A DNA stretch of 34,539 nucleotides from UHGV virus genome UHGV-2132316. One strand, written 5' to 3'. Position 1 is the first letter of the stretch, and each line of letters begins with the position of its first letter. Under the pieces are notes generated by a model. It worked only from the letters and a program-made list of their open reading frames with translations, ran no database searches and had not been told where the DNA came from. Positions 2,705 to 31,399 of this stretch are shown here, in pieces. Made by a program: the position numbers and the translations under genes. The stretch comes from a virus.

Positions 2705-3889
2705 ATGAGTGAAACTCGTTTTCATGGTGCCCGTGTTACGGAAAATACCGACCTGGTAACAGCGATTAACGATGTTGATTCCAGCGTTATCGGTATCGTG
2801 GCAACGGCGGATGATGCGGACGCGAAGCTGTTCCCGCTGAACAAGCCCACACTGCTGACCCGCGTCAATGACGTGCTGGGAAAATGCGGAACAACGGGGA
2901 CGCTTTATCGTGCGCTTAAGGCCATCGCAGACCAGGTGAGCACAAAGGTGATCGTCGTTCGCGTGGCTGAACACAAAGAAGAAGACGGAAAGACGCAGGA
3001 TCAACTGGTTATCGGTGGTTCTGAGGATGACGGCAGCTATACGGGGATGTATGCGCTGCTTGTTGCAGAGCAGGATGAAAGCATCGGATACCGTCCGCGT
3101 ATTCTGGCCGCGCCGGAGCTGGACACGGAGGCGGTAACAAAATCCCTGTGCGTGATTGCGGGTAAACTGCGCGCGTTTGTGTATGCCACATGTCATGGTT
3201 GTAACACGATGGCTGAGGCGATTACCTACCGCCAGAAATTCAACGAACGTGAGGTGATGCTCTTATGGCCTGACTTCATCGCCTACAACCCGAAAAGTGG
3301 CAAAAACGAAACGTTCCCCGCGCCTGCTTATGCGTGCGGCCTTCGTGCGTACATTGACCATGAGCAGGGCTGGCACAAATCGCTGTCCAACGTTCCGGTT
3401 AAAAATGTGCTGGGAATGTCCAGGCATGTGTTCTGGTCGTTGCAGGCCGAAGACAGTGATGCCAACAGCCTCAATAACAAAGAAATCACGACCATTATTC
3501 GTCGCAACGGGTTCCGCTTCTGGGGCAACCGCACACCGGAAACGAACGCCTACATCTTTGAGGTGTATACCCGAACCGCACAGGTGCTGGCTGATTCAAT
3601 TGCGGAAGCGCAGTTTGAAACCATCGACAGTCCACTGACGCCTGCGAACGTGAAGGATGTTATCAGTGCCATCAGGGCAAAACTGGATTCGCTGGTTACT
3701 GCCGGGAAACTGATTGGTGCGGAGTGCTGGTATGACGTGGTGGATAACGGCACCACGAATTTACGTCAGGGACGTGTGCGTATTCGCTACAAATATACGC
3801 CCGTTCCGCCACTGGAAGACATGGAGCTTTACCAGACGTTTACTGATGAATTCTTTGGTCCCGCATTTGCGGTGCTGGGAGGTGCCTGA
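2705..3889 (+). CDS. FI: Contractile tail sheath protein (P2 gpFI-like)
   Basis: 394 aa; strong similarity to remembered P2 FI (e.g. ...TFPLNKP..., ...WPDF..., GWHKSLSNV, IRRNGFRFWGNRT, YTPVPPLE); RBS AAGGGG upstream. Confidence 0.92.
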   Translation: MSETRFHGARVTENTDLVTAINDVDSSVIGIVATADDADAKLFPLNKPTLLTRVNDVLGKCGTTGTLYRALKAIADQVSTKVIVVRVAEHKEEDGKTQDQLVIGGSEDDGSYTGMYALLVAEQDESIGYRPRILAAPELDTEAVTKSLCVIAGKLRAFVYATCHGCNTMAEAITYRQKFNEREVMLLWPDFIAYNPKSGKNETFPAPAYACGLRAYIDHEQGWHKSLSNVPVKNVLGMSRHVFWSLQAEDSDANSLNNKEITTIIRRNGFRFWGNRTPETNAYIFEVYTRTAQVLADSIAEAQFETIDSPLTPANVKDVISAIRAKLDSLVTAGKLIGAECWYDVVDNGTTNLRQGRVRIRYKYTPVPPLEDMELYQTFTDEFFGPAFAVLGGA

Positions 3890-4401
3890 TGGCTGTACCA
3901 AAACATCTTCGCTTTTTTACGTTGTTTGTGGATGGTGAAAACGAAGTGGGTAAAGTGACATCCGTCACGCCGCCCAAACTGACGCGCAAAACCGACAGCT
4001 ATCGTGGTGGTGGCATGATGGGGGCGGTAAGTATTGATCTCGGTCTGGACGACTCCGCGCTTGATGCGAGTTTTGTTATGGGGGGAGCTGTTCGTGCGCT
4101 GTTCCTTAAATATGGCGGCACGATTGACGGCACGCTGCTGCGTTTTGCGGGTGAATACTACACCGATGCAGAAAGCGATCTGTATGAAATCGAGATGCGC
4201 GGACGTGTGACGGAAATTGATATGGGGGAAGCCAAACAGGGCGAAGCCACATCACACACTTACGCTGTCAAAAACACCTACTACAAGCTGAGCGTTAACG
4301 ATCGCCCGCTGTGGGAAATCGACCTGTTGAACCACATCTACCGGAAGGACGGCAAGGACATTGTGCCTGACCGTATCCGTTCCGCGCTTGGGCTTGGCTG
4401 A
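3889..4401 (+). CDS. FII: Tail tube protein (P2 gpFII-like)
   Basis: 170 aa ORF; start overlaps the FI stop (TGATG); position and size match gpFII. Confidence 0.88.
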   Translation: MAVPKHLRFFTLFVDGENEVGKVTSVTPPKLTRKTDSYRGGGMMGAVSIDLGLDDSALDASFVMGGAVRALFLKYGGTIDGTLLRFAGEYYTDAESDLYEIEMRGRVTEIDMGEAKQGEATSHTYAVKNTYYKLSVNDRPLWEIDLLNHIYRKDGKDIVPDRIRSALGLG

Positions 4402-4456
4402 TAAGTAATATGCAGGCGGCGCAGTGCGTCGCCTCTGACTGAAAAGGAGACAACTG

Positions 4457-4831
4457 ATGAAAGACATCGATACTGAAACCCGGAATAACACCGTGGCGGA
4501 TGATGTGACGGCAGGTGAGGATATGGCTGTCGAACGTGGCGTAAAACTGACCCGACCAATTGAGCGTGGTGGCGAAAAAATCACGTATGTGGAGATCACC
4601 GGGGCTATTGAACAGGCTGGATCCCTGCGTGGTCTGTCGCTGTCTGATGTGCTGAATCTGAAAGCGGATACCATGTTCACGCTGTTGCCTCGCGTGACCT
4701 CGCCACGACTGGATGAAGTGATGATTAAAAAAATGTCGTCACGCGATTTTATTCAGTTGTGCGCTGTGGCTGTAAATTTTATGAGCGAGCCAGACTCTGG
4801 CGCGAAGAGCGTGCAGGAGACGGCGGCGTAA
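4457..4831 (+). CDS. E: Tail assembly chaperone gpE (0-frame product)
   Basis: ATG preceded by AAGGAG RBS; sits between tube and tape-measure genes; overlapping -1 frame ORF follows (E'). Confidence 0.8.
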   Translation: MKDIDTETRNNTVADDVTAGEDMAVERGVKLTRPIERGGEKITYVEITGAIEQAGSLRGLSLSDVLNLKADTMFTLLPRVTSPRLDEVMIKKMSSRDFIQLCAVAVNFMSEPDSGAKSVQETAA

Positions 4832-4995
4832 TCACCCTGGTGTGCTTTGATCACATCGAAGATCTGGTGGCAGATATCGCCGCCATTTTTAACTGGTCGC
4901 CCGCCGAAATCTTCATGATGACGCCCGGCGAAGTGGTTAGCTGGCGTGAGCGGGCGGCACTTCGCAGCGGGAATGCAGACAATGAAGACTCTTGA
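4457..4995 (+). CDS. E+E': gpE+E' fusion produced by -1 programmed ribosomal frameshift (candidate slip sites A7 run 4727..4733 or A_AAT_TTT 4774..4780)
   Basis: -1 frame is open from 4729 (after TAA 4726-4728) to 4995 and overlaps the T start; conserved G/GT-type arrangement in tailed phages. Confidence 0.6.
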
Positions 4996-7789
4996 TATCC
5001 GGGTCGCTTTCAGCGCCGTTGACAGGCTGACCCGACCTGCCGAAAACGCCCGCCGCCTGATGGGGCAGTTTGGTGACTCCATCCAGCGAACGCAGGGGGC
5101 GATCAAAAATCTCGAGCGTCAGGCGCGATCATTTGAGCGCGCCCGCGACGCTGTCAGTAAAGCGGATGCGGGCATCGTGAAAGCACGACGCCAGCTTAAC
5201 GCCCTTAATCAGTTACAACGCACGGGTACAGTGCTCAGCGAAAAACAACAAAAGCTGATGCAGCAGTTAAGCACCCGGCTTGAACGCCTGAATGAATCGC
5301 GTACACGGGAAATTCAGAAAATGCGGGAGCTTGGCGGAGAGCTGAAACGCCACGGCATTTCCCTGACAGGCAGCGATAACACCATCCAGCAGGCCATCAG
5401 ACGCACCGAACAGTACAACAACCAGCTTGAACGCGAACGGCAGGCGCTTGCGCGTGTAACGCGGGCGCGTGAGCGGTATTCGCGCGCGCAGGAAACAGCG
5501 GGAAAACTGAAAACAGGTGGTGCGCTGGCAATTGGTGCGGCAGCGGCGGGCGGCTATGCTGCCGGGCGTTTTTTGCAGCCTGCGATCGGGTTCGGGAAAG
5601 AGATGTCCCGCGTTCAGGCGCTGACGCGAATCGACCAGAACAGCCCACAGTTTAAGGCGCTGCGTGAGCAGGCGTTAAAACTTGGCTCTGAAACGCAGTT
5701 CACCGCTGGAGATGCCGCCAGTGGACAGGCATTTCTTGCAATGGCTGGCTTCACACCACAGGCCATTCAGGCTGCGCTTCCCGGTGTGCTGAGCATGGCA
5801 ACGGCTGGCGGTATGGATCTCGGCGAGACGGCGGATATTGGCTCAAACATCCTGACGCAGTTCGGCCTTTCTGCCGACCAGATGGACCGGGTCGGTGACA
5901 CGCTCACCGCAGCGTTTACCCGTACCAACACTGACCTTCGCGCACTGGGCGAAACCATGAAATATGCAGGTCCGGTGGCGGGCAAGCTGGGAATATCGCT
6001 GGAGCAGGCCGCAGCGATGGCGGGCGTGCTGGCGAATATGGGTATCAGGGGAAGTGATGCCGGGACGGCAATGCGTGCCAGCCTGGCTCGTCTGGCATCA
6101 CCGCCAAAGGCGGCAGCAGAGGCGCTGAAAGAGCTTGGTGTGGCAGTCTCTGACGCGAACGGCAAAATGCGCCCGATGGAGGATGTGCTGGCCGATCTTT
6201 ATAAAGCCACCCGCAAATACGGGGAAGTTGACCGGGTATCGTTCTTTAAGGACATTGCCGGAGAAGAGGCTTTCACATCGTTTATGGCGCTCGTTGATGC
6301 AGCGGGTGACGGTTCCTTACCTAAACTGAGAAAAGAACTTGAAGGCGCACGCGGTGAGGCTGAACGCACAGCAAAGGTTATGGCCAACAACCTTGATGGC
6401 GATCTGAAATCACTCGGCAGTGCATGGGAAGGGTTGCGCATCCGCATTGCAGATCTGATTGACGGTCCGCTGCGTTCTGTCACGCAGTGGCTCACGCGGG
6501 TGGTATCAAGGGTGACGGCGCTGGCGCAGGCCCATCCGGCACTGACGCGCCAGCTACTGATAGCAGGCGGTGCGTTGCTGGCAATGACTGCAACGATTGG
6601 CTCGTTGTCGCTGGTTATTGGCGTGCTTCACGGGAAACTGGCCACGTTACGTCTTGGTTTTTCTCTCCTGACCGGATCAATGAATGTCGTCAGGGTGCTG
6701 CCAGCACTATGGGGAATGGTAACAGGTTCCATCTCGTTGCTGGGTGGCGCTATCGGGGCGCTGTTCAGTCCGGTCGGATTGATTGTTGCCGCGTTTGTGG
6801 CTGCGGCGGTTCTCATCTGGAAATACTGGGAACCCATCAAGGCGTTTTATGCCGGGGTGTTCAGTGGGATTATGGAACGGCTGGCTCCGTTGCGCGAAAC
6901 CTTTGAACGGTTTGGTCCTGTTTTTGATGTCGTGCGCGATGGGATTATTCAGCTCTTTAACTGGTTTAAATCGCTGCTGTCACCGATGGAGTCCAGCAAG
7001 GAAACGCTGGATAAATGCACCAGTGCTGGCGAGATATTCGGTAACGTTCTTGGTGGCGCGCTACAGCTTGTTCTGACGCCTGCAAAAATGCTGCTGGATA
7101 CGCTGGCGTGGATACTTGAAAAACTCGGTGTGCTTCCGGATGAAGCGGAAAGGGCGAGAAAGAAAATCGAAGACGCACAGCGTGCGGCCATTCTTCAGGA
7201 CAAGGTTGCCTTGCTTCAGGGGGACCTGGCGAAAATCAATCCGCCGAAGCCTGTAGAAAATGGCAATGGCACCGGAGGTGATAACCCCAAAGACAATAAA
7301 CCGCTCACAGACAGCAATACTGGTACGCTGCGCAGACTCAGCAAAATTGCTGATAACACAGGTAAGCTGGTTGATGAGACGAAAAAACGCATTGGCCCCG
7401 GCGATATTGTCTTTAAGAACCTGCCCCGCGCACTTGCTGTTCGTGGGGAGTGGCAGGAGCGGAAGATTGCGCAGGTCAGTAAGCCTGCCCCCGCAATTAA
7501 TATCACACCCGTGGTCCCGGCTCCGCTGCCTCCGGCGCTGGTCCCTGTTGTTGCGGCCAGCTCCCGCCCGGTGGCGGAGGCCATACGATCTCCAGTGGCA
7601 TCAGTTCCTGTAACTTCCCGTAACCGGGAGCCTGTTGCCTCAGGATTTGGCGGTGAAATTCATGTTCATCTGCATAACGTCGTTACACAGAATCCCCGCG
7701 AACTGGCGAAACTGGTCGGTGAAATGGTCAGGGCAGAAATGGAACGGCGCGCCCGTGCCGGGCGTGGCAGTTTTTACGATAAAGATTGA
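4946..7789 (+). CDS. T: Tail tape-measure protein (gpT-like); start uncertain (GTG 4946, ATG 4973 or ATG 4982)
   Basis: 947-aa ORF with coiled-coil rich N-terminus, Gly/Ala-rich and hydrophobic central segments typical of tape-measure proteins; position after E/E'. Confidence 0.9.
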   Translation: MSGRHFAAGMQTMKTLDIRVAFSAVDRLTRPAENARRLMGQFGDSIQRTQGAIKNLERQARSFERARDAVSKADAGIVKARRQLNALNQLQRTGTVLSEKQQKLMQQLSTRLERLNESRTREIQKMRELGGELKRHGISLTGSDNTIQQAIRRTEQYNNQLERERQALARVTRARERYSRAQETAGKLKTGGALAIGAAAAGGYAAGRFLQPAIGFGKEMSRVQALTRIDQNSPQFKALREQALKLGSETQFTAGDAASGQAFLAMAGFTPQAIQAALPGVLSMATAGGMDLGETADIGSNILTQFGLSADQMDRVGDTLTAAFTRTNTDLRALGETMKYAGPVAGKLGISLEQAAAMAGVLANMGIRGSDAGTAMRASLARLASPPKAAAEALKELGVAVSDANGKMRPMEDVLADLYKATRKYGEVDRVSFFKDIAGEEAFTSFMALVDAAGDGSLPKLRKELEGARGEAERTAKVMANNLDGDLKSLGSAWEGLRIRIADLIDGPLRSVTQWLTRVVSRVTALAQAHPALTRQLLIAGGALLAMTATIGSLSLVIGVLHGKLATLRLGFSLLTGSMNVVRVLPALWGMVTGSISLLGGAIGALFSPVGLIVAAFVAAAVLIWKYWEPIKAFYAGVFSGIMERLAPLRETFERFGPVFDVVRDGIIQLFNWFKSLLSPMESSKETLDKCTSAGEIFGNVLGGALQLVLTPAKMLLDTLAWILEKLGVLPDEAERARKKIEDAQRAAILQDKVALLQGDLAKINPPKPVENGNGTGGDNPKDNKPLTDSNTGTLRRLSKIADNTGKLVDETKKRIGPGDIVFKNLPRALAVRGEWQERKIAQVSKPAPAINITPVVPAPLPPALVPVVAASSRPVAEAIRSPVASVPVTSRNREPVASGFGGEIHVHLHNVVTQNPRELAKLVGEMVRAEMERRARAGRGSFYDKD

Positions 7790-7801
7790 GGAGTCATGGC
7801 T

Positions 7802-8290
7802 ATGATGATGATCTACGGCATGTTTGTTTTTGAGCTGCGCACGCTGCCGCATCAGCAGTTACAGCAAAACAAAAGCTGGCGGCATGTGAAAAATGAACGC
7901 GTTAACCGTTCAGCAAGCTGGCAGTATATCGGTGCAGGTGATGATCGCATCGTTCTTTCTGGTGTGCTTTATCCTGAAATTACAGGTGGCGAAGTGTCGC
8001 TGTCGCTGCTGACCACGCAGGCGTATACAGGACGACCCTGGCCTTTGATTGATGGCGTCGGGCAGATTTACGGCATGTATGTCCTGACCGGAACGAATAC
8101 GACCCGTTCCGAGTTTGATCGCTACGGTAAGGCGAAAAAGATAGAATTTTCACTGACCCTTGAACGCTGTGATGAGGATTTGCGGGAGCGCCTGCAATCC
8201 TCATCGTTCAGTGATATGCTGTCCGGCTTCAAAGATAAGGTGACATCATCTCTTAACAGCGCGGCCAGTTCAGTTAAAGGGCTGTTCTGA
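7802..8290 (+). CDS. U: Tail protein gpU-like
   Basis: Start placed at ATG 7802 (GAGGAG RBS 8 nt upstream; track start 7796 is only 2 nt from the RBS); P2-U-like sequence. Confidence 0.85.
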   Translation: MMMIYGMFVFELRTLPHQQLQQNKSWRHVKNERVNRSASWQYIGAGDDRIVLSGVLYPEITGGEVSLSLLTTQAYTGRPWPLIDGVGQIYGMYVLTGTNTTRSEFDRYGKAKKIEFSLTLERCDEDLRERLQSSSFSDMLSGFKDKVTSSLNSAASSVKGLF

Positions 8291-8296
8291 TTTAAC

Positions 8297-8337
8297 ACAA
8301 AAACCGCTAATGGTCAGATTAGCGGTTATTTTGTTTT
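8297..8337. terminator. Bidirectional rho-independent terminator between convergent U and invertase genes (stem accgctaat/attagcggt, loop ggtcag, A-run on one side and T-run on the other)
   Basis: Perfect 9-bp stem read directly; the invertase stop codon lies within the 3' arm. Confidence 0.7.
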
Positions 8338-8913
8338 CTGACTCTTCTCTATTGTTCCGCTTGATTCTCCTGCGGGGTGGTAACGATAAATCGTCGATGT
8401 ACCAATGCCGTAAATTATTGCCAGTTGTTTTCTGTCGTGACCGTTTTTAATCAGCCTTGCTATTTGCTCATGCTGTTCTTTTGTCAGCTTCGGTCGACGT
8501 CCGCCTGTGCGCCCCCGTGCGCGCGCTGCCGCCAGTCCGGCCAGTGTACGTTCAACAATTAATTCACGTTCCATTTCAGCCAGGGCACCCATCACGTGGA
8601 AGAAAAAACGCCCCATTGGAGAAGATGTATCTATGCTGTCGGTCAGACTGCGAAAATTAATCCCTCGCTCCCGTAGTTCTCCGACGAGAGAAATCAGATG
8701 TTTCATGCTTCGCCCAAGGCGATCCAGTTTCCAGACAACCAGCGTGTCACCTTTTTGAAGCCGCTTTAAAGCGCGTTTTAATCCCGGTCGGTCTGTCTTT
8801 GTCCCGCTTAATTTATCTTCAAATATTTGTTCACATCCTGCACAAACAAGAGCGTTTCGTTGCAGGTCTGTATTCTGGTCATTTGTTGATACCCTTACAT
8901 AACCAATCAGCAC
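8326..8913 (-). CDS. Serine-recombinase DNA invertase of the Hin/Gin/Cin/Pin family; start at GTG 8913 (GGGAG RBS), track ORF starts at an upstream TTG
   Basis: LIGYVRVSTNDQNTDLQRNAL...GDTLVVWKLDRLGRSMKHL... near-identical in the catalytic domain to remembered Pin; C-terminal HTH region. Confidence 0.92.
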   Translation of the reverse strand: MLIGYVRVSTNDQNTDLQRNALVCAGCEQIFEDKLSGTKTDRPGLKRALKRLQKGDTLVVWKLDRLGRSMKHLISLVGELRERGINFRSLTDSIDTSSPMGRFFFHVMGALAEMERELIVERTLAGLAAARARGRTGGRRPKLTKEQHEQIARLIKNGHDRKQLAIIYGIGTSTIYRYHPAGESSGTIEKSQKTK

Positions 8914-8967
8914 ACTGAATCTCCCGTCCAAAAGCGCAAATCATGCCATGCAGGCCGGAAACGGCCA

Positions 8968-8993
8968 TTATCTAAAACCTCGGTTTACAGGAA
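8968..8993. other. gix/hix-like 26-bp recombination site (left): TTATCTAAAACC-TC-GGTTTACAGGAA
   Basis: Matches the Gin/Hin/Cin/Pin crossover-site consensus; contains the in-frame stop TAA (8973-8975) that closes the silent cassette frame on the outside. Confidence 0.8.
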
Positions 8994-9980
8994 ACGGTAA
9001 ACAGGGCTGGTAACGCCGTGCAAAAAAATGGCGATACCTTGTCCGGTGGGCTTAATTTTGAAAACGACTCAATCCTTGCCTGGATTCGAAATACTGACTG
9101 GGCAAAGATTGGTTTTAAAAATGATGCCGATAGCGATACTGATTCATACATGTGGTTTGAAACAGGCGACAACGGCAATGAATATTTCAAATGGAGAAGT
9201 AAACAAAGCACCACAACAAAAGACCTGATGAATCTTAAATGGGATGCTTTGTCTGTTCTTGTTAAAGCCCTTTTCAGCAGTGAAGTAAAAATATCGACAG
9301 TCAATGCACTGAGGATATTTAATTCATCTTTTGGTGCCATTTTTCGCCGTTCTGAAGAATGCCTGCATATCATCCCTACACGAGAGAATGAGGGAGAAAA
9401 TGGTGATATAGGGCCATTACGCCCCTTTACGATTAACCTTAGAACTGGTCGGATAAGCATGGGGCATGGTCTTGATGTTACAGGGGATATATTTGCAAAC
9501 CGTTTTGCAATTAACAGTAGTACCGGCATGTGGATTCATATGCGTGACCAGAATGTTATTTGGGGACGCAATGCGGTATCCACCGATGGTGCGCAGGCAT
9601 TACTTCGTCAGGACCACGCTGATCGCAAATTTATGATTGGTGGACTGGGGAATAAGCAATTTGGCATCTACATGATTAATAACTCAAGGACAGCCAATGG
9701 TACCGATGGTCAGGCGTACATGGATAATAACGGGAACTGGCTTTGCGGCTCGCAAGTTATTCCCGGCAACTATGGCAATTTTGATTCACGTTATGTGAGA
9801 GATGTCCGACTTGGCACACGTGTTGTTCAGACTATGCAAAAAGGCGTGATGTATGAGAAATCAGGTCATGCAATTACGGGGCTTGGCATTGTCGGTGAAG
9901 TTGATGGCGATGATCCGGCAGTATTCAGACCAATACAAAAATACATCAATGGCACATGGTATAACGTCGCACAGGTGTAA
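8976..9980 (+). CDS. Silent alternative tail-fibre C-terminal (receptor-binding) cassette; no own start, becomes fused to the constant part of H after inversion
   Basis: Frame is open from 8976 through the gix site (NLGLQETVNRAGNAVQKNGDTLSGG...); ends ...YINGTWYNVAQV, parallel to the end of H (...QYCINGTWYNAGSI). Confidence 0.8.
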   Translation, partial: NLGLQETVNRAGNAVQKNGDTLSGGLNFENDSILAWIRNTDWAKIGFKNDADSDTDSYMWFETGDNGNEYFKWRSKQSTTTKDLMNLKWDALSVLVKALFSSEVKISTVNALRIFNSSFGAIFRRSEECLHIIPTRENEGENGDIGPLRPFTINLRTGRISMGHGLDVTGDIFANRFAINSSTGMWIHMRDQNVIWGRNAVSTDGAQALLRQDHADRKFMIGGLGNKQFGIYMINNSRTANGTDGQAYMDNNGNWLCGSQVIPGNYGNFDSRYVRDVRLGTRVVQTMQKGVMYEKSGHAITGLGIVGEVDGDDPAVFRPIQKYINGTWYNVAQV

Positions 9981-9983
9981 TTT

Positions 9984-10511
9984 ATGCAGCATTTAAAAAA
10001 TATTAAGTCTGGAAATCCAAAAACAAAAGAACAATATCAGCTAACAAAGAATTTTGATGTTATCTGGTTATGGTCCGAAGACGGAAAAAACTGGTATGAG
10101 GAAGTGAAAAACTTTCAGCCAGACACAATAAAGATTGTTTACGATGCAAATAATATTATTGTCGCCATCACCAAAGATGCCTCCACGCTTAACCCTGAAG
10201 GTTATAGCGTCGTTGAGGTTCCTGATATTACAGCTAATCGTCGTGCTGATGATTCCGGTAAGTGGATGTTTAAGGACGGAGCTGTGGTTAAACGGATTTA
10301 TACGGCAGACGAGCAACAACAACAGGCCGAATCACAAAAGGCCGCGTTACTTTCCGAAGCAGAAAACGTTATTCAGCCACTGGAACGCGCTGTCAGGCTG
10401 AATATGGCGACGGATGAGGAACGCGCACGACTGGAGTCATGGGAACGCTATAGTGTTCTGGTCAGCCGTGTGGATACGGCAAATCCTGAATGGCCACAAA
10501 AGCCTGAATAA
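9984..10511 (+). CDS. Alternative tail-fibre assembly chaperone (Tfa, gpG/Mu U'-like), silent orientation
   Basis: 175 aa; N-terminus [24 protein letters not shown]... nearly identical to the active gpG N-terminus while the C-terminus differs, as expected for cognate chaperones. Confidence 0.85.
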
Positions 10512-10515
10512 AAAT

Positions 10516-10536
10516 TAAGGCCCGATAGCGGGCCTT
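10516..10536. terminator. Bidirectional terminator hairpin (aaggcccg-atag-cgggcctt) between the two convergent chaperone genes
   Basis: Perfect 8-bp stem read directly, flanked by A/T runs. Confidence 0.6.
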
Positions 10537-10539
10537 GTT

Positions 10540-11073
10540 TCATTCTGGTTGTTCTGGAAACGTTACTGGCAGGCTGGAGGTGTCTGTGGATTCGACCTTC
10601 TGCGCATAGAGCATCCACTCGGTTAATTTTTGTTTATTCTCGTCGGAAATGATACCCAGCCGTAGCTGTGAGTCCCATAGCTGGGTTTTATCCCTGACAA
10701 GTTGCAACAGGCTTTGCTTTTCATTCTCTGCCTGCTGCCTCTGTTCCTCCTCGGTATAAGTTCGCTTTATCACTACGCCATCTTTGAACATCCATTTACC
10801 CGAAATATCAGCCCGGCGATTTGCTGTAATATCAGGTAATTCAACGACGCTTGCGCCTTCCGGATTAATTGCTGAAACATCCTTTTCAATACAAATAATA
10901 ACGCCGTTATGGTCATAGACCATTTTCAAAGTGTCTGGCTGGAAATTCTTTTGTTCCTCATACCAGTTTTTTCCATCATCTGAATAAAGCCATTTGATGT
11001 TAAATTGCTTTGTTAGCTGGTATTGCTCTTTTGTTTTAGGGTTGCCAGCAGTAATATTTTTTAAGTGCATCAT
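10540..11073 (-). CDS. G: Tail-fibre assembly chaperone gpG (currently expressed orientation)
   Basis: 177 aa directly downstream of H; Tfa-family sequence. Confidence 0.85.
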   Translation of the reverse strand: MMHLKNITAGNPKTKEQYQLTKQFNIKWLYSDDGKNWYEEQKNFQPDTLKMVYDHNGVIICIEKDVSAINPEGASVVELPDITANRRADISGKWMFKDGVVIKRTYTEEEQRQQAENEKQSLLQLVRDKTQLWDSQLRLGIISDENKQKLTEWMLYAQKVESTDTSSLPVTFPEQPE

Positions 11074-11075
11074 AA

Positions 11076-13310
11076 TTAAATACTCCCCGCGTTATACCAC
11101 GTTCCATTAATGCAATACTGAATTGGCCTTGCCTGAGTTGTATCAATTAATTCATCACGGTTTCCGTTAACTGAACCAGTAACGACATAACCTGACCTGT
11201 CAGACCAGCCAGGACCATTCCATGTCTGAACAGATGACAGACCGCCAAGGCGAATACCTGTAATAAACCTTGAGTTACATTCTGCCTGCGTATATGCACC
11301 AACATCTCCCGCAGAGGGTTTGCGTGTTGTGGTGTAAAACTCTGACCAGTTAGCTTCAAAGCCATAACCATCACGCGCTGAACGATAAAAGATACCGCCA
11401 TTTCTGTAATTCACGCGGAACTGTACAGCAGGGCAACTCCCCGCATTCATATTAAAGTGGAGGATTAATGTCGATGCGCCACTGATATCTGCATCATAAA
11501 CGCCGCTATTCCAGTTCCAGCCAACAGCTTTATCATTTGCGACCCTGCGTCCTGTTTGCCCTAAAGCAAATGCAGGCTGCTGGTTTTTCGTGTTGTAGTC
11601 TCGTCGCCAGCCAGGAGCGTAAGCATCACCATGATTAATATAAGTGAATTGAGCGTTAGTGATTCCGCCACCGCTGGACGTGCTCGGCGTGGTAACGCGT
11701 ATGGTCATTGCGCCGCGGGTGCCAATAACTTCCACCACAGCACCTGCAAGACAAATATTTCCGCAACCTGTATCTGTAATGACCTTATTATTTGCATAAG
11801 CCCATGAGCCTTTGCACATCCAGTAAGGATGGTTAAATGCCCCCTGACTCTCCAGCCACGAAATGAATTGTGCGGTTGTCCAGACCTGACTATCGCCACC
11901 AATATTCAGCCATGCGCTATATGCGCGGCAGGCCCCAATATTTTTGGTGAAGGTATCTTTCCCCGGAATATCTGCGCCGTTCTGGTTTTTCTGTAATGCG
12001 CCAGAAGCCTGATTTACCGTTTCCTGTAAACCGAGGTATTCGATAACAGCGGCAACGGTCGATTTCGCAAGAATATCCCGCCCGACTTTTGTCAGGGTTG
12101 CCAGGCTGGCGACATCATTCCCCGTAAAATACGGAAACTTGTCTGCCGCAGTAGCAAGCCCGGCCAGCGCCGTCAGGGTGGCATCTTTCGGTTGCTTACC
12201 CGCAAGCGCTTTAGTCATGGTGGTCGCAAAATTCGGGTCGTTTCCCAGCGCCGCCGCTAACTCGTTCAGCGTATTCAGTGCGTCAGGTGACGAATCTACA
12301 AGGGCGGCAATCGCAGCCATAACGAAAGCCGTGCTTGCGATTTGGGTATTATTCGTTCCCTGTCGCGCAGTTGGCGTTGTTGGCGTTCCGGTCAACGCAG
12401 GACTGTTTAAGGGCGCTTTCTTGTTCGTTTCATCCATTACCGCCTTAACCGCTTTCGATGTCGCGGCCAGTGTTTCAGACGTGCTGTTGGTGGCACTACT
12501 GAGCTGGACTATCCCTTTTTGTGCCGTCGTGGCGTCCTGAGCGGTATATTTTGCGTTAGCAAGGTCATACGCGGCCTTTACTGCTTTCGGCGTTGCAGCC
12601 TGCGTTTCAGACGTGCTGTTGGTGGCGCTACTGAGCTGGACAAGGCCTTTTCGTGCCGTCGTGGCGTCCTGAGCGGTATATTTTCCGTTAGCTAGGTCAT
12701 ACGCGGCCTTAACCGCTTTCGGCGTTGCAGCCTGCGTTTCAGACACGCTGTTAGTGGCGCTACTGAGTTGAACAAAGCCTTTTGCGGTCAGCGAGGCGTC
12801 CGGGTGACGTCGTGACTGTTCATGCTCTTTCAGTTTGTCATCCACGTAATCCACTGTGGCCATCACCATGGTGTTATCCACGGTAAGCGCCACGGTGGCC
12901 GTGCTGGATACGGTCAGAATGGTGCGAAATGTTTGTGCACGTCCGGACCCTTCGGCAACGGTTGGTTTGTAACTTTCGGCAGTATTGCCCACCGCGATTA
13001 AATCGCCGTGCTCATCAAATACACCAATTTCCCGGATCCAGAATCCGCCCGTTTCAGGAGGAATAACCAGCTCCGCAATAATGCGGTTCTGATGTGTTGC
13101 GTCCAGGATGACGCGATTAACAGTGTGTCGCCACACCTCATGCACCAGACGGGTCTGCTTACTGTCTGGTGTGGGCAACGTGCCGCCACCGTCGCCCACG
13201 GCCATATGAGTCAGGCGGACAGGCTTACCATCTGGCGCGGCTGCCTGAGCTAATTTTTTGGCACCTGTATCGGTGATAACGGTTTTAAATTTTCGTGTTG
13301 TGGTACTCAT
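11076..13310 (-). CDS. H: Tail fibre protein gpH; N-terminal ~425 aa constant region, C-terminal ~320 aa exchangeable by inversion
   Basis: 744 aa; N-terminal half matches remembered P2 H (..RRHPDASLTAKGF.., LNSPALTGTPTTPTA..); gix site inside the gene. Confidence 0.92.
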   Translation of the reverse strand: MSTTTRKFKTVITDTGAKKLAQAAAPDGKPVRLTHMAVGDGGGTLPTPDSKQTRLVHEVWRHTVNRVILDATHQNRIIAELVIPPETGGFWIREIGVFDEHGDLIAVGNTAESYKPTVAEGSGRAQTFRTILTVSSTATVALTVDNTMVMATVDYVDDKLKEHEQSRRHPDASLTAKGFVQLSSATNSVSETQAATPKAVKAAYDLANGKYTAQDATTARKGLVQLSSATNSTSETQAATPKAVKAAYDLANAKYTAQDATTAQKGIVQLSSATNSTSETLAATSKAVKAVMDETNKKAPLNSPALTGTPTTPTARQGTNNTQIASTAFVMAAIAALVDSSPDALNTLNELAAALGNDPNFATTMTKALAGKQPKDATLTALAGLATAADKFPYFTGNDVASLATLTKVGRDILAKSTVAAVIEYLGLQETVNQASGALQKNQNGADIPGKDTFTKNIGACRAYSAWLNIGGDSQVWTTAQFISWLESQGAFNHPYWMCKGSWAYANNKVITDTGCGNICLAGAVVEVIGTRGAMTIRVTTPSTSSGGGITNAQFTYINHGDAYAPGWRRDYNTKNQQPAFALGQTGRRVANDKAVGWNWNSGVYDADISGASTLILHFNMNAGSCPAVQFRVNYRNGGIFYRSARDGYGFEANWSEFYTTTRKPSAGDVGAYTQAECNSRFITGIRLGGLSSVQTWNGPGWSDRSGYVVTGSVNGNRDELIDTTQARPIQYCINGTWYNAGSI
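12021..12046. other. gix/hix-like 26-bp recombination site (right), inverted copy inside gene H: TTCCTGTAAACC-GA-GGTATTCGATAA
   Basis: 24/26 identical to the reverse complement of the left site; central dinucleotides complementary (TC vs GA); encodes ...IEYLGLQE... in H. Confidence 0.8.
12430..12800 (-). repeat. Tandem 132-bp (44-codon) direct repeats, about 2.8 copies, inside H (peptide unit ...VQLSSATNSTSETQAATPKAVKAAYDLANxKYTAQDATTAxKG)
   Basis: Period measured between 'gtttcagac' occurrences at 12472, 12604 and 12736. Confidence 0.8.
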
Positions 13311-13312
13311 GC

Positions 13313-13843
13313 TTAATCGTCCGGATAAATGGTAATAACTTCACCGTCATAAGTTGCCGCCGCTGCAAAAATATCCCCCGGAATTTCCTGAATGATATTC
13401 AGCCCTGTCATGTGGCGGCTGACCGGACGGGCATCAGCAATCAACCGCTCCATTTCCAGATACATTTCCTCCGTCACGCCACTGTCCAGTGTGCCGACTT
13501 CAACGGTAAATGTTCCCGGTTCTCCGCCGAACTCCCACCACTCAGACACGCGAATGAGGTATCCCAGCGGCTCAATGGCCCTGCGCAGTGCGCTGATGGT
13601 CCCTTTGTGTCGGTGTATCAGCCATGCATCACGAATCACCTGTCGTTTTGTCTCTTCCGGCCAGTTGCGATCCCAACGGTCAACGAAAAATGCCCAGGCG
13701 AGATAAGGCAGCAGGTGCACCGGGCAGGTGTCCGGCGACCACAGCGTGTTGAGGTCTACCGGGATGTCTGTAATGCGCGTTCCGACAGCTTCGGCACAAC
13801 GCATGAAACTGCTGGCTGATGGTGGTAACAGTGAATTACTCAT
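13313..13843 (-). CDS. I: Baseplate assembly protein gpI-like
   Basis: Start chosen at MSNSLLPP... (176 aa); P2-I-like; overlaps the J 3' end by 8 nt. Confidence 0.85.
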   Translation of the reverse strand: MSNSLLPPSASSFMRCAEAVGTRITDIPVDLNTLWSPDTCPVHLLPYLAWAFFVDRWDRNWPEETKRQVIRDAWLIHRHKGTISALRRAIEPLGYLIRVSEWWEFGGEPGTFTVEVGTLDSGVTEEMYLEMERLIADARPVSRHMTGLNIIQEIPGDIFAAAATYDGEVITIYPDD

Positions 13844-14732
13844 TGCGCCCACCTTCGCTGATGGTGAACGACTCACAGCGCGCCGCCTGTATGTCGCTGA
13901 TGGCCATATTCTGTGTGGGTTCGATTATCTCCACGCGTTGCACACCGTGCACATGCAGTGCGGCAGCAATGGCGGACAACGCCACGTCCTGACCGATAAG
14001 CCCCTGCTCAGCCAGCCACTTCCTGAACGACGATTCAGCCGCCGCCAGAATAGGTTCGGATTCCGGGCCGGGGTAAAAGTACAGTTTTGCATTCAGCCGC
14101 CATGTCACGATTCTGGCGCTCTGTACAGTAAGGCGGTCGGCCACCGGGCGGGTATCCTCTGCATTCAGAACGGCGCGAACGGTATTAAGCAACGCCTCCG
14201 TTGCTGTGCCGTCGCCTTCAGTGGACAGGATGGAAACCGTCACATTTGCCGGAGACGGACTGATAGCCCGCGCATCACGCACCAGACCGCTGGCGCTGCG
14301 GGCAAAATACTCGTATGCACCTGACGGGCCAGCAACACTCAGGCCATCGTACGCCCGCTGCGCCCGCAGTCTCAGCGAGGTGTCACTTTCCATCACTGCG
14401 TCGGTGGTATCCGTTGCCGGAGTGATGGTCAGGCGCTTTGTGTTCATATTGCCCGCGAGGTTGTCCAGGTCTGTCCCGGCGCTGTGGCTTAACATGCAGG
14501 CGCGTGCCCCCTCGTTAACCCGCTGGCGTAACAGCATTTCACGAAACGACATGGTTTGAGCGATAACGTTAAGGGGTTCCGATTCCAGCTCCAGCGCGGC
14601 GGAAACGGCTTCACGCTGTTCGGCGGGATAAGCCGCAATCATCATGGCCTTTGTGTCAGCCAGAATTGCCTCAAAGTCAGGCTCCGCGATGATGGCGGGG
14701 TCCGGTAACTGTGAAAGGTCAACGGCGGGCAT
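13836..14732 (-). CDS. J: Baseplate assembly protein gpJ-like
   Basis: 298 aa; MPAVDLSQLPDP...ESEPL...RPVADRLTVQSA... matches remembered P2 J. Confidence 0.9.
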   Translation of the reverse strand: MPAVDLSQLPDPAIIAEPDFEAILADTKAMMIAAYPAEQREAVSAALELESEPLNVIAQTMSFREMLLRQRVNEGARACMLSHSAGTDLDNLAGNMNTKRLTITPATDTTDAVMESDTSLRLRAQRAYDGLSVAGPSGAYEYFARSASGLVRDARAISPSPANVTVSILSTEGDGTATEALLNTVRAVLNAEDTRPVADRLTVQSARIVTWRLNAKLYFYPGPESEPILAAAESSFRKWLAEQGLIGQDVALSAIAAALHVHGVQRVEIIEPTQNMAISDIQAARCESFTISEGGRNE

Positions 14733-14735
14733 GAT

Positions 14736-15086
14736 TTACTCCCTTAGCGTGATGGTTAATTCAACATTCTGCATGGTCTGCATGACAGTGCCCGACAGCG
14801 TCACCCCGGCGCGGCCTCCCGCTTTCCAGACAACGTCGATGGCATCCAGGGCAATGCGGGGTTCCCATCGTGTCAGCGCAATCACGGCAGCACTCATGCA
14901 TTGCAGACGCGTGGTGTTATTCATGGGTTCGTCAATCAAATCAGGCACAAGGCTGCCATATTCCCGTCGCATAACCCGGCTTGCCAGCGGGGTGGTCAGG
15001 ATATCCCTGACTGACTGTTTCAGGTGCTCCATATCGTTCAGGTTTCCCGTCCCGTCCGGATTCATTCCTGTGTAGCGGGTTGTCAC
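14736..15086 (-). CDS. W: Baseplate protein gpW-like
   Basis: 116 aa; MTTRYTGMN...RVMRREYGSL... like P2 W. Confidence 0.85.
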   Translation of the reverse strand: MTTRYTGMNPDGTGNLNDMEHLKQSVRDILTTPLASRVMRREYGSLVPDLIDEPMNNTTRLQCMSAAVIALTRWEPRIALDAIDVVWKAGGRAGVTLSGTVMQTMQNVELTITLRE

Positions 15087-15664
15087 TGCGGGCCTCCTGT
15101 CGAATCGCTGCCGCCTTTCACGCCACCGTGTTTATGCGTATGCACTGTGATGCCGTTTGAGGTGAAGTTGCCGCCGCTGTGCGTGATATTGCCGCTCATC
15201 TTTCCTCCTTTTGTGACGTCAAGCGTCGCCGTTCTCAGAAGGTTTGTGCATTCCACGACGGGCGTATCCAGTTTCACGCTGACGGATGCCTGTAAAGTGG
15301 CCGTTTTCATGCCGCTGGCGCTCAGTGCGCCTGCGTCCGCGTCGTAGCGGAACACCGCGCCATCCGGCGCGCTGACCACGATTTCTTTCAGGCTTTTGCC
15401 GGGTGCCGGACTGGCATCACTCCACAGGCTGCCAATTATCATGGCGGTTTCCGGGTTGCCGCCAATGCAGGCAATTACCACCTGTTCGCCTGGTGATGGC
15501 GGCAGCCACACATTGAAGGCTCCCGCGCGCGTGGTGTTCCAGCGCAACCATCCTGTTTCCAGTTCGCCGCTGCGAACGCGCACGCGCCAGGACTTCTCAT
15601 CAATTTCAGAGATGATCCCGGTGCGGATGATATTGCTCAGCAGTCGCATGAGTTCTGCGCTCAC
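15083..15664 (-). CDS. V: Baseplate spike/assembly protein gpV-like
   Basis: 193 aa; ..IRTGII.E.D...GEQV.I...GG....A...GS....HTHKH.. pattern as in P2 V. Confidence 0.85.
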   Translation of the reverse strand: MSAELMRLLSNIIRTGIISEIDEKSWRVRVRSGELETGWLRWNTTRAGAFNVWLPPSPGEQVVIACIGGNPETAMIIGSLWSDASPAPGKSLKEIVVSAPDGAVFRYDADAGALSASGMKTATLQASVSVKLDTPVVECTNLLRTATLDVTKGGKMSGNITHSGGNFTSNGITVHTHKHGGVKGGSDSTGGPQ

Positions 15665-25012: not shown

Positions 25013-25651
25013 TTACCTTCCCCAGTCCCGATCAGGAAGTCTATCTTTGAAGGCAAGGTAATCGTAAAACTCACGAGTATGGGAAAAAATACATTCGCAC
25101 ATTGCAGCGCCAGCGTTTGAAAGAGCCAATTTCAACATGCCGTCAGGTTTAGGATTGCTCACCAAATTTTCATAAACTTGAGCCTGATCTAAACCGTGGA
25201 CACATAACAAAAGCGAAGACTCAAAGGTAACAACCGCATCCAGTAAACGCTGATGAATCACGGAAAGGGTCGGTTGGTTTGCAACAATTGCAGTCAAACA
25301 GCGGCGATCACCAGTCATAAAAATGGCTTCTGGGTTCTCTATGCACGAGGCAAGCAATAGCTGTTCGCCTACATCAATTCCGGGCACACTCCCCAAAAGC
25401 TCAATAAGCTGGGAGTCCTGAACTTCCGGGATATCCTGTACAGATTCAATGAAGGCTCCCACTTGCTCGTAAACAACTTGGCTACCACACTTCCTGATTG
25501 CTTTATCAGGATTTTTCGGCAGAAGCTGAAAACGAGCAGCAGGGTTAATGAAGATCTGTTCGGGGGGTTGATTAAAAACCACTGGCAGTTGTGATAACAG
25601 ATTGCACTGGGCCAGCTTCAAAATGACATCATTATCAGAAAGAACAATCAC
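25013..25651 (-). CDS. Hypothetical PIN-like (putative nuclease) protein, second gene of the cargo cassette
   Basis: 212 aa; GTG start with GGGGA RBS; N-terminus IVLSDNDVILKL and ...AIFMTGDRRCL... resemble PIN-domain acidic motifs; assignment by eye only. Confidence 0.55.
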   Translation of the reverse strand: MIVLSDNDVILKLAQCNLLSQLPVVFNQPPEQIFINPAARFQLLPKNPDKAIRKCGSQVVYEQVGAFIESVQDIPEVQDSQLIELLGSVPGIDVGEQLLLASCIENPEAIFMTGDRRCLTAIVANQPTLSVIHQRLLDAVVTFESSLLLCVHGLDQAQVYENLVSNPKPDGMLKLALSNAGAAMCECIFSHTREFYDYLAFKDRLPDRDWGR

Positions 25652-25654
25652 TTA

Positions 25655-26653
25655 TTATTCCCCGATTAGATTTTCTAAAACCTTAAGATCATCTTCGTGG
25701 ATATTTTCTAAATCCATCCCGCTTTTCATCATGGCCCTCACAAAATCCTGATCTGAGTCTTCACCAGCGCAGAGTGATTTAACAGCGTTAACAGCAACGC
25801 CCCAGCAGTTCTGCGCGAAACCATAATTTAAAGCGATGTGAGTTGGGTCAATGTGATTATCACTTCCAAACTTTTGAGCTGCGCGAGCCAAGCCTGGCCC
25901 GTTCAACCTGCCAGCGGTAGGAACGATACGTAAAGACTTCTGCCCCGAAATGACCTGGAAGGCGAATTCGTTAGCTTCTTTCTCTACGTTGTCCGTCGAA
26001 GCATTCTCAATTTTTGCGTCAATATGGCACTGCCCGTTTTCTGCGTTCAGATGCCCTCTGGCGATATGGCCTAACTCATGCGCGAGATCAAACAGCATAT
26101 AGCCGTATTTCTGAGGCTGAGTAAGAACAATCACCGGGCGCCCGTGACTCATTAGCGCCAGTCCGGCCATTTTTTTTGCAGCTTGTGGGAAGCATTTTAG
26201 ATAAACAACAGGAATGCCAATCGAATGACAGTATGTTACCAGGCTATCTAGCGACACCCATGATTCCTTAGTAAGGATCTGGGTTCTTATCGCCAAAGGA
26301 TCCAGCACTGCACTAGCATCGTAAGGGACTTTGAAATTAGACGCGACAATACCGGCCGCAGTATAGGCAACAGCAGTAGCGATATCTAAATCGTTCTCGG
26401 CTACATTTTGGCGATGTTTATATTTATGGTTTCCACCAAAATTAAAGCATACCCCTTCGCTACCATCTTTCAGGCTATCCGGGAGAATGCTAAACATACG
26501 CGCAAGGTGCAGGCACGCATACTGGCGCCCTGATGGGGTGTCAGCAAGCTTCTCATCCCACCAATCAGGCAACAACCTGCGGATGTAAGAGAGATTAAAC
26601 CCGGCCCGGCCGAATTTAGAATATATCTGACTCATCTGATTATGGTTCGTCAT
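25655..26653 (-). CDS. ImmA/IrrE-family (DUF955/COG2856) HEXXH metallopeptidase-domain protein with extra N- and C-terminal regions
   Basis: 332 aa; LAHELGHIARGH followed by EKEANEFAFQ is the ImmA/IrrE signature; strong AGGAGG RBS. Confidence 0.75.
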   Translation of the reverse strand: MTNHNQMSQIYSKFGRAGFNLSYIRRLLPDWWDEKLADTPSGRQYACLHLARMFSILPDSLKDGSEGVCFNFGGNHKYKHRQNVAENDLDIATAVAYTAAGIVASNFKVPYDASAVLDPLAIRTQILTKESWVSLDSLVTYCHSIGIPVVYLKCFPQAAKKMAGLALMSHGRPVIVLTQPQKYGYMLFDLAHELGHIARGHLNAENGQCHIDAKIENASTDNVEKEANEFAFQVISGQKSLRIVPTAGRLNGPGLARAAQKFGSDNHIDPTHIALNYGFAQNCWGVAVNAVKSLCAGEDSDQDFVRAMMKSGMDLENIHEDDLKVLENLIGE

Positions 26654-26811: not shown

Positions 26812-29199
26812 TTAGTTCCGCGAAAATGCCGCTTTCATCCTATTCACAAGATCGCTTGTTTTTTGCTTCGCCGCCATCACTTGCGACGGCAGCCTCTCCA
26901 GCCCCGACGCGGCCCGGTTGCGCGATACCAGCCGCCCGTCCTGCACGGTCATAACAAGATCGCCGCACGCCACTGACGCACCGGCCATCATCGATCTGAC
27001 CATTCCGGCGCTGGCATCAATCCCACGTAGCGCCAGCAGTTCACTGATCTGCTGCTCTTTCACGGATAACCCGTCCCCGTCTTTCCGTTCCGGTGGCCGT
27101 TTTTTACGCTTACTGCGCACATCGTCACTAAGCCGCTGCGCCAGTTCTCGCTTTTCCTGCCGGGAAAGCGCATCAAAATTCACCGTCACGCCCTCAGCTG
27201 GTGCAGTCATTTCTGACTGCCCTTTAGCTTCGCTGGCGGCATGTTCAACACCGTCAGCACCTGCCGCGGGATCCCGCGTACAGTTATTGACAGAACTCCG
27301 AGGGGCGGCGCTGCCGCCTGAAAAACCAACGTCAACGGCCACACCGTCAGCGCTCTGGCGCTTCGGCACGATTTTGTATTGAGTGGTGCGGGTGAAGATC
27401 AAAGAGTCATTGCCCGTGATCGGGCAGTAAATACCAGTGATTCGCTGGACGTTATCGCCGTAGGCGTTGCCATTTTCAGTGATTTCATAGTTCAGACGGA
27501 TGCGCAGTTTATCGCGCTCAACCAACGGGCCACCCTGGGCTAATACGTAGTTATCCCATTCACCACCGTTAGCAGCCTGCCGGGCGGTTTCCAGTTCAGG
27601 GTGTAACACCAGTTCGCGATCGCCCAAGCGGCGAAGTTCGCGATATACCGTGACCGGCGCACCGCCGATCTGCTGAAACTGGCGAATAGCCCAGCGCGAT
27701 GCCCACGCGCTAACACGGAGTGACATTTCTTTCAGGTCTTCCCCGGTTTCGTCGTCCTTCTCACCATCCAGCGCGAAGCCGTCGATATTCTTCGAAATGT
27801 ATTTCGCTATGTAGCCGGTTGCGCTGCCGTGGGCATCGTCGATCGGCACAACCTGAAAGCGGTTTTCCTGCGCTCCCGGTTCGTTGCCGTCTTCTTTCAG
27901 GGCATATTTACGGAAGATTTCGCGCGCCTGCTCGACGCATTCCGGGCGCATAAAAAGAAGTAAATGCCAGTGTGGCGTTGCATCGTGGTGCGGTTCGACC
28001 ACGCGGAAACCAAAGACGCGGATCCCTTTTCTCTTCCACGCTGCGCGGGTTCTCGCCCAGACTTTGCAAAGATATTGCTGCGTCTCGCGCGGCGACGCGC
28101 CACAGTATTTATTATTGCGGCGCCCGTTATGCTGCATGGAGTGGTAACGGGAAGGTGCTGTCAGCGTGTAGAAGTCACCGGCCAGCCCTTCCAGCTTCGC
28201 CAGATCTTCAAATCCGCGCATTCTCGTCATGAGTTCGCGGCGACGGTTGGCCGGATTGGCAACACTACCGGCGACTTTATCGATCAGTGAAATGCGCTCG
28301 CCCGTGTCCTGGTCTTCCAGCTCCATAGCCTTAAGGTATTCACGGTTAGCCTTTTTCTGGGCCAGCCATTCCGTAAGGCACGGGGCGCTACTGTATGGGG
28401 AAGATTTTTTCTGGACGTATCCCGCCGCGATCATCAAGTGCTCACGCCATCGGGCATGGATACGGCGCAGGCGGTTTAACCACCATTGCGGTGACTCAAG
28501 ACGGAGAACCGCGCGTAACGCGTCCTCCGCTTCAAGTTCTTCATTGCAATACGCTGTCCAACCTGGGATCGGCGTTTTTAGATGCACCGCCAGCGACGCA
28601 ATACGGCCATAGCCAGAAAGCGCCGCGAACTCAGGATCGCCGGTGCGCGCCAACTGGTAATCGGACTCGCGTATAAACTCGCTCGTAAAGATATCGGCAA
28701 GCGTATAAGCCAGTCTTTTTAACTCTTTTTTCCCTGCCCAAAGCATACGGAAAAGCTGATCGCGGATTGGCAGCAGAATGCCAGGCATCACAGTGTCAGG
28801 CTGGTAAACACTGTTCACGCTATCAATACGTGTTAATACGTGGCGCTCAAAGGTATTAACCAGCCAGTGATCTGCCGCTTTGCGGTCTTTCGCGTCCAGT
28901 GCATCCAGCTTCGCGGCAAAGTGGCGGCGGATATACTGCGGAAGGGAAGCCAGACGGCGACGCAGCAGCTTGCTGCGCTCCGACTTTTCGTCCTCCGCTA
29001 CCAGTTCACTGAACGCAATATGCTTGCGGGTGCCGTCCGGCGTGAGATAGTCGAAACCATCCAGCCCCGTCGCTACATCAACGCCAATCGGCTGGTATGG
29101 TTTGTTCCCGCCATAAGCGTAAGGGGTAGCATTATCAGTGCTACCCGAATACGGTGGAGGTGGAGAAGGGGCGCGACGGCCACGGGTTGCCGTAGTCAT
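26812..29199 (-). CDS. A: Replication initiation endonuclease gpA-like (rolling-circle Rep)
   Basis: 795 aa; YTLTAPSRYH and GYIAKYISKNIDG motifs characteristic of P2 A-type initiators. Confidence 0.9.
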   Translation of the reverse strand: MTTATRGRRAPSPPPPYSGSTDNATPYAYGGNKPYQPIGVDVATGLDGFDYLTPDGTRKHIAFSELVAEDEKSERSKLLRRRLASLPQYIRRHFAAKLDALDAKDRKAADHWLVNTFERHVLTRIDSVNSVYQPDTVMPGILLPIRDQLFRMLWAGKKELKRLAYTLADIFTSEFIRESDYQLARTGDPEFAALSGYGRIASLAVHLKTPIPGWTAYCNEELEAEDALRAVLRLESPQWWLNRLRRIHARWREHLMIAAGYVQKKSSPYSSAPCLTEWLAQKKANREYLKAMELEDQDTGERISLIDKVAGSVANPANRRRELMTRMRGFEDLAKLEGLAGDFYTLTAPSRYHSMQHNGRRNNKYCGASPRETQQYLCKVWARTRAAWKRKGIRVFGFRVVEPHHDATPHWHLLLFMRPECVEQAREIFRKYALKEDGNEPGAQENRFQVVPIDDAHGSATGYIAKYISKNIDGFALDGEKDDETGEDLKEMSLRVSAWASRWAIRQFQQIGGAPVTVYRELRRLGDRELVLHPELETARQAANGGEWDNYVLAQGGPLVERDKLRIRLNYEITENGNAYGDNVQRITGIYCPITGNDSLIFTRTTQYKIVPKRQSADGVAVDVGFSGGSAAPRSSVNNCTRDPAAGADGVEHAASEAKGQSEMTAPAEGVTVNFDALSRQEKRELAQRLSDDVRSKRKKRPPERKDGDGLSVKEQQISELLALRGIDASAGMVRSMMAGASVACGDLVMTVQDGRLVSRNRAASGLERLPSQVMAAKQKTSDLVNRMKAAFSRN

Positions 29200-31398: not shown

Positions 31399-31399
31399 T

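Follow-up and report, generated by a model that had tools for sequence, protein, structure and literature searches.

An active-looking inversion switch of the G-segment type, with a mosaic silent tail-fibre tip, in a P88-like prophage of Escherichia coli

DNA invertases of the Gin/Hin type act in an invertasome formed by a Fis-bound enhancer and two inverted sites, strand exchange taking place at the central dinucleotide; the Gin enhancer is located in the 5' part of gin. In the G segments of Mu and D108, the constant part of the fibre gene lies outside the invertible DNA and two convergent sets of tip and chaperone genes lie inside, between 26-bp gix sites and next to an invertase gene that carries the enhancer in its 5' end. 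The C segment of P1 and P7 (cin, cix) and the P segment of e14 (pin) use the same recombinase subfamily and obey the same principle. Tail-fibre genes are a recognised target class of programmed inversion (PMC9881135). In Mu, the G(+)/G(-) inversion switches host range (PMC4406740): G(+) particles infect E. coli K-12, and the hosts of G(-) particles are E. coli C, Citrobacter freundii, Shigella sonnei, Enterobacter cloacae, Serratia and Erwinia (PMC4406740; PMC11915804). Inversion of such loci has been demonstrated within clonal cultures for P2-like E. coli prophages (PMC4272514); it is not discussed in the paper on P88 (PMC5285337).

The stretch of DNA analysed here (the window, 34,539 nt) is a complete-looking P2-family prophage of the genus Xuanwuvirus (P88 group), with genes for integration, replication, head, tail and lysis, and it adjoins fieF in E. 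coli. Two inverted 26-bp gix-type crossover sites delimit a 3.08-kb segment (8968-12046) adjoined by the intact gene of a Gin-like serine invertase. Of the two tip cassettes in the segment, one is expressed and the other silent; each is paired with a chaperone gene, and the layout allows the two to be swapped by inversion (Table 1). We conclude, with a probability of roughly 0.93, that it is an intact, active-looking programmed inversion switch of the G-segment type. Both the mechanism and the phage group are known: this is a classic switch of the Mu G / P1 C type, already described. An earlier note, drawn from the sequence alone, had proposed this architecture, i.e. an expressed and a silent tip with chaperones of their own, exchangeable by inversion. 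The crossover sites, an inversion performed in silico and relatives in the flipped orientation bear this out; the Mu G / P1 C-type identity of the module as a whole had been missed.

Table 1. Coordinates of the invertible segment, its parts and its neighbours in the window, with amino acid identities for the three portions of the silent cassette
Feature	Position	Strand	Basis or remark
DNA invertase gene (Gin/Cin/Pin/Hin subfamily serine recombinase), 195 aa	8326-8913	-	Pfam; identity to Gin
Predicted Fis-dependent recombinational enhancer	8828-8895		In the 5' end of the invertase gene; from sequence
Invertase-side crossover site, TTATCTAAAACC-TC-GGTTTACAGGAA	8968-8993	+	1 mismatch to Mu gix; identical to the P88 invertase-side site
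Silent variable tip cassette (Mu Sv / P88-type), 334 codons and stop	8976-9980	+	Identities to P88, P7 and Mu S
Silent cassette, aa 1-96			P2 H 93%, Mu S 98%, P88 98%
Silent cassette, aa 97-262			P2 H 17%, Mu S 63%, P88 96%
Silent cassette, aa 263-334			P2 H 81%, Mu S 57%, P88 82%
Silent tail-fibre assembly chaperone gene (Mu U / P2 G type), 175 aa	9984-10511	+	Pfam Caudo_TAP
G+C-rich hairpin, terminator-like on both strands	10516-10537		Between the two convergent chaperone genes
Expressed chaperone gene (Mu U' type), 177 aa	10540-11073	-	Pfam Caudo_TAP
Tail-fibre gene H, 744 aa	11076-13310	-	Followed by the gene of the 177-aa chaperone
Expressed variable tip of H (Mu Sv' / G(-) type), 320 aa	11076-12038	-	Identity to Mu S'
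H-side crossover site, TTATCGAATACC-TC-GGTTTACAGGAA	12021-12046	-	Identical to the P88 H-side site
Constant part of H, aa 1-424 (baseplate-attachment domain and three fibre repeats)	12039-13310	-	Alignment with P2 H; Pfam

As DNA, the segment as a whole shares 92-96% identity with the Mu and D108 G segments, the P7 C segment and its counterpart in P88. Its ends form a 61-nt inverted repeat that pairs 8968-9028 with 11986-12046. A search of the window with a gix-type pattern returned two matches at up to 3 mismatches, as against 0.00 expected (100 shuffles): the two sites are inverted and share the central dinucleotide TC. Mu gix, whose sequence is the same on both sides of the G segment, differs by 1 base from the invertase-side site and by 3 bases from the H-side site. 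The two window sites differ from each other at 2 of the 26 positions, in the outer half-site, a difference that is evidently tolerated because P88 carries an identical pair. The H-side site falls in the codons ..IEYLGLQE.. of H, and the outer half of the invertase-side site contains an in-frame TAA (8973-8975) that closes the silent cassette upstream. A third crossover site, which would have made the locus a shufflon as in one EPEC P2-like prophage, was rejected: none is present in the window at up to 3 mismatches.

The recombinase encoded beside the segment has the domains of the DNA-invertase subfamily, i.e. a Resolvase domain (E=1.3e-50) and a C-terminal helix-turn-helix (HTH_7, E=9e-14). 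Over 180 aa, among them the YVRVSTNDQ motif of the catalytic serine, it shares 86% identity with Mu Gin, and its GTG start codon aligns with the start of gin. In nucleotide sequence, a single base differs from Mu gin in the first 110 nt of the gene, and nt 19-86, which coincide with the predicted enhancer, are identical, the matching interval being annotated as the Cin enhancer in the P7 record. Judging from these identities, the invertase would be catalytically competent and its activity would depend on Fis bound in cis.

When the segment was inverted in silico, H and the silent cassette fused in frame to give the product ...AAVIEYLGLQETVNRAGNAVQKNGDT...; recombination at the central TC puts the 334 codons of the silent cassette in place of the final 320 of H and keeps the frame (...AAVIEYLGLQETVNRAGNAVQKNGDTLSGGLNFENDS...). 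The constant part of H thus lies outside the segment and the alternative C-terminal parts inside it, in frame both ways, as in Mu G and P1 C. On its own, the silent cassette is an N-terminally open frame: its first codon (8976) directly follows the TAA, it has no start codon of its own at the boundary, and it ends ...YINGTWYNVAQV at 9980. Compared with the expressed tip of P88, it contains no stop or frameshift. Promoter-like sites inside the segment number 4, against 7.6 expected, and none stands out. A promoter proper to the silent cassette was rejected on these grounds, i.e. promoter-like sites below chance and an upstream end closed by the TAA.

The constant part of H aligns with residues 1-379 of P2 H, the two being near-identical from aa 220 of H onward, and matches Phage_tail_fib and three Phage_fiber_2 repeats in Pfam. 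Within it, a 132-nt unit is repeated in tandem at 12442-12837; the three copies (the other two share 89% and 61% identity with the first) encode as many fibre repeats of 44 aa. P2 H is one such unit short, which appears as a 44-aa gap in the alignment. The expressed tip is of the Mu S' type: it shares 309 of 319 residues (97%) with the variable part of Mu S', matches the structure of the Mu S/S' fibre (PDB 8JU3, E=1.5e-215) and ends ...QYCINGTWYNAGSI. The view that the currently expressed tip is not P2-like was thus correct, and the peptides quoted in the earlier note are present where they had been placed.

Each cassette is followed by its own chaperone gene, as had been proposed. The silent chaperone is as close to P2 G as to Mu U (95% identity to either) and does not differ from P88 gp40 (100%); the expressed one is 98% identical to Mu U'. 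Because each is 95-98% identical to its Mu counterpart, their relationship is that of the known U/U' pair. The two are 58% identical overall, with 85 identical residues out of 115 (74%) in positions 1-115 and 18 out of 60 (30%) in positions 116-175, so that their description as near-identical at the N-terminus and divergent at the C-terminus had the right direction but was overstated. The Mu chaperone is reported to remain bound to the distal fibre in the virion (PMC9608196), in keeping with a tip and its chaperone gene travelling together.

Both orientations of the segment are found among relatives. The prophage of E. coli 81009 matches the window at 99.98% and 99.91% identity in the two flanks, between which precisely 8968-12046 is in the reverse orientation. 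P88 likewise has the segment inverted relative to its flanks, and the 12-nt stretches immediately inside the two sites have traded places as compared to the window. We also surveyed complete E. coli genomes with the invertase-side junction at a coverage of at least 80%: the present configuration was found in 228 genomes and the flipped one in 135, and the flipped junction built in silico had a best identity of 99.4% in these genomes. The H-side junction was left out of this survey because invertase-less P2-type phages carry the same contiguous sequence. From these relatives we infer that the segment would also invert in the strain of the window itself. The segment of the 81009 prophage (locus L008, 5239-8294) is 99.09% identical to that of the window, as against 99.9+% for its flanks, and its genes are annotated as frameshifted; this divergence could be an assembly artefact of a mixed-orientation culture, or real decay.

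The comparison with Mu also brings out differences. While the components are closely related (S' 97%, U' 98%, U 95%, Gin 86%), Mu is a transposable phage whose constant fibre part is Mu Sc, whereas the window is a P2-family phage with a constant part resembling P2 H. Furthermore, the invertase gene of the window is transcribed away from the segment and sits on the opposite side relative to the fibre gene, and its S-type tip shares no more than 71% identity with Mu S and departs from it at the distal end (57% over the final 72 aa). P88 and its kin (phage 503458 and the prophages of E. coli 81009, KA0011 and O145 strains) share the genus, gene order, crossover sites and invertase. The silent tip of the window shares 92% identity with the tip expressed by P88, and the chaperones of the two are 100% identical; P88 differs in having been deposited in the opposite orientation and in its host-range stretch HR2, which is P88-type, that of the window being pro147-type (19 of 31 residues identical to P88). 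P2 H and G resemble the window in the constant part of H, in both ends of the silent cassette (the first 96 and last 72 aa) and in the silent chaperone, but P2 lacks both an invertase and a second cassette and has only a fossil site in H, and its sequence is unrelated to the middle 166 aa of the cassette. As for P1/P7 and e14, P7 Sv' and the silent cassette share 87% identity, and the DNA of the segments 88-92%; the constant fibre parts are other ones, the cix sites are more diverged, and the contexts are plasmid-prophage or lambdoid.

The mechanism that we propose is as follows. The Gin-like invertase, together with host Fis on the enhancer inside the invertase gene, would recombine the inverted 26-bp sites at the central TC. 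Since one of the sites lies inside H, the inversion would exchange the last ~320-334 codons of H along with the downstream chaperone gene. As sequenced, H carries a Mu S'-type (G(-)) tip, with a U'-type chaperone; after inversion, it would bear the silent mosaic tip (a shaft module of the Mu S/P2 H kind, a centre of the P88/Mu S type and, distally, an end of the P2 H/pro147 type), which would come with the U/G-type chaperone. Lysates of induced lysogens would probably hold both fibre types, one Mu G(-)-like and the other with a pro147-like distal determinant, i.e. two particle types with different LPS-receptor specificities that would amount to host-range bet-hedging. The parts are intact, fusion is in frame in both directions, near-identical prophages occur in either orientation, and the sequence holds nothing that speaks against a switch. 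The host ranges attributed to the two forms are predictions from tip similarity: the SfMu fibre, in spite of an identity of more than 95% to Mu S', differs from it in host range (PMC4406740), which indicates that host range is not readable from identity, even at 95-97%.

The nature of the silent tip calls for closer consideration, as the earlier note held that it closely resembles the C-terminal part of P2 H and that the prophage could switch to a P2-like receptor-binding domain. The cassette is indeed homologous to a fibre tip along its full length: residues 1-333 match Mu S 169-504 (PDB 5YVQ) with E=6e-150, and its frame is free of stops and frameshifts. Its relatives, however, rank as follows: the P88 gp39 tip (92%), P7 Sv' (87%, by tblastn), SfMu (83%), D108 (77%), P1 (75%), then, lower, Mu S (71%) and P2 H (52%). 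The BLASTP alignment with P2 H comprises 177 identical residues out of 347 (51-53% overall) and 20% gaps, and at least 20 phage records are closer to the cassette than P2 H is. Likeness to P2 H does not run along the whole tip: the close resemblance holds for aa 1-96, for aa 263-334 and for the chaperone, and fails in the central 166 aa, which are of the P88/Mu S type (Table 1). Since Gp34_trimer, the T4 gp34-like trimerisation domain of Pfam, covers aa 42-153 and overlaps the shared N-terminal part, the latter is therefore shaft and not tip. On this sequence comparison, the label 'P2-type' suits only the two ends of a mosaic silent tip and its chaperone.

The distal end deserves separate examination, given that host range in P88 is determined by residues 716-746 (HR2), among which Leu730 and Glu744 are the key ones, and that a swap of the larger variable region HR1 had no effect on host range (PMC5285337). 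In HR2, which corresponds to its aa 286-316, the silent cassette has 29 of 31 residues in common with pro147, 20 with P2 and 19 with P88; it carries Ile and Pro at the two key positions, and at P88 position 744 it differs from both P2 and P88. From this comparison, the distal end belongs to the P2 H / P88 / pro147 tip family and is not a P2 specificity variant. That inversion would join the silent cassette to H stands, but a switch to P2-like specificity cannot be assumed because the centre is of the P88/P7/Mu S type and HR2 of the pro147 type. We therefore consider it rather unlikely, and do not favour the idea, that the flipped prophage would acquire the receptor specificity of P2, in spite of the 81% identity of the last 72 aa to P2 H, the 95% identity of the chaperone to P2 G, and a crossover-site sequence that P2 H has at the same codons.

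The last of these points has a bearing on P2-type fibres themselves. The H genes of P2 (locus L002, 13857-13882) and pro147 (locus L006, 1490-1515) contain a near-perfect crossover site at the codons ..IEYLGLQE.., as the window does at 12021-12046, the P2 version (TTATCGAATATCTCGGTTTACAGGAA) having 1 mismatch to the H-side site of the window. Neither P2 nor pro147 has an invertase or a second cassette: only this fossil site is left in H. The retention of the site sequence in H without an invertase suggests that invertase-less P2-type fibres may be frozen products, or donors, of this switch.

Returning to the reading of the silent tip as a mosaic, we tentatively propose, at somewhat less than even odds, that it is a natural three-part chimera, made up of a Mu S/P2 H shaft module, a centre of the P88/P7 type and a host-range stretch of the pro147 type, and that its chaperone is of the P88/P2 G type; that the prophage alternates between a Mu G(-)-like and a pro147-like range; and that P2-type fibres are frozen products or donors of the switch. 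Such a tip would in essence be the P88 construct with the HR2 of pro147 that was made in the laboratory in order to change host range, and it is for this reason that the prophage would alternate between the two ranges.

A further explanation is that the locus is a relic, the silent cassette being a fossil that is never expressed and the invertase, the enhancer or a site being dead. Relatives do decay: in the prophage of E. coli KA0011, which is 99.97-99.99% identical to the window, IS26 replaces window positions 10165-12188 (locus L005, 21436-22254), removing part of the silent chaperone gene, the expressed chaperone and tip and the H-side site, and thereby leaving a locked, fibre-defective copy. 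In addition, P2 and pro147 keep a fossil site in H without an invertase, and SfMu may be locked by a 1-bp change in its site (PMC4406740). The window, by contrast, has every part intact, including a silent cassette that reads through without stop or frameshift when set against the expressed P88 tip, and a prophage more than 99.9% identical to it exists in the opposite orientation; for these reasons a relic is very improbable. Least credible of all is an inversion that benefits the host, in which one orientation would let the lysogen make a fibre-derived protein that masks receptors against other phages, in the manner of PinQ / e14 StfE2: although E. coli cryptic prophages offer a precedent (PMC12529663), this prophage looks complete, P88-type phages are inducible, H is part of a late tail operon, and the segment is poor in promoter-like sites, with a silent cassette closed by the TAA and devoid of a start at its boundary, so that such a host-defence role finds no support in the window prophage.

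Elsewhere in the window, the sheath-tube-E-T-U operon (2705-8290, + strand) is transcribed towards the fibre/baseplate operon (8326-15664, - strand), unlike in P2, and gene D and ogr are on the other strand, at 1439-2569 and upstream. This departure from the P2 gene order is conserved across Xuanwuvirus (P88, phage 503458 and the E. coli prophages). We rejected the possibility that the inverted FI-FII-E-T-U operon (2705-8290) is a product of the invertase because P88, phage 503458 and the E. coli prophages share the arrangement and the window contains no further sites. Between the portal and replication genes, a pair of low-GC genes (45-49%; 25013-26653) encodes an ImmA/IrrE-like metallopeptidase (Peptidase_M78) and a 212-aa protein without a Pfam match, and two DNA methyltransferases are encoded further on (C5-cytosine, 29196-30110; Dam-like N6-adenine, 30427-31452). 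These genes (25013-26653 and 29196-31452) are possibly accessory or defence cargo of the prophage.

Prophages of this type are widespread in E. coli: 2811 of the 5426 complete genomes match some part of the region, 71 of them nearly over its full length. The locus adds one more well-preserved copy of a textbook host-range switch, and it follows that the annotation of such prophages should report both fibre variants; a host range predicted from one assembly orientation alone is incomplete. Where only the ends of a mosaic fibre match, calling it a 'P2-like tip' can be misleading. If the silent tip does confer the range suggested by its HR2, the prophage would pair a Mu G(-)-like with a pro147-like range, a combination uncharacterised for any studied phage.
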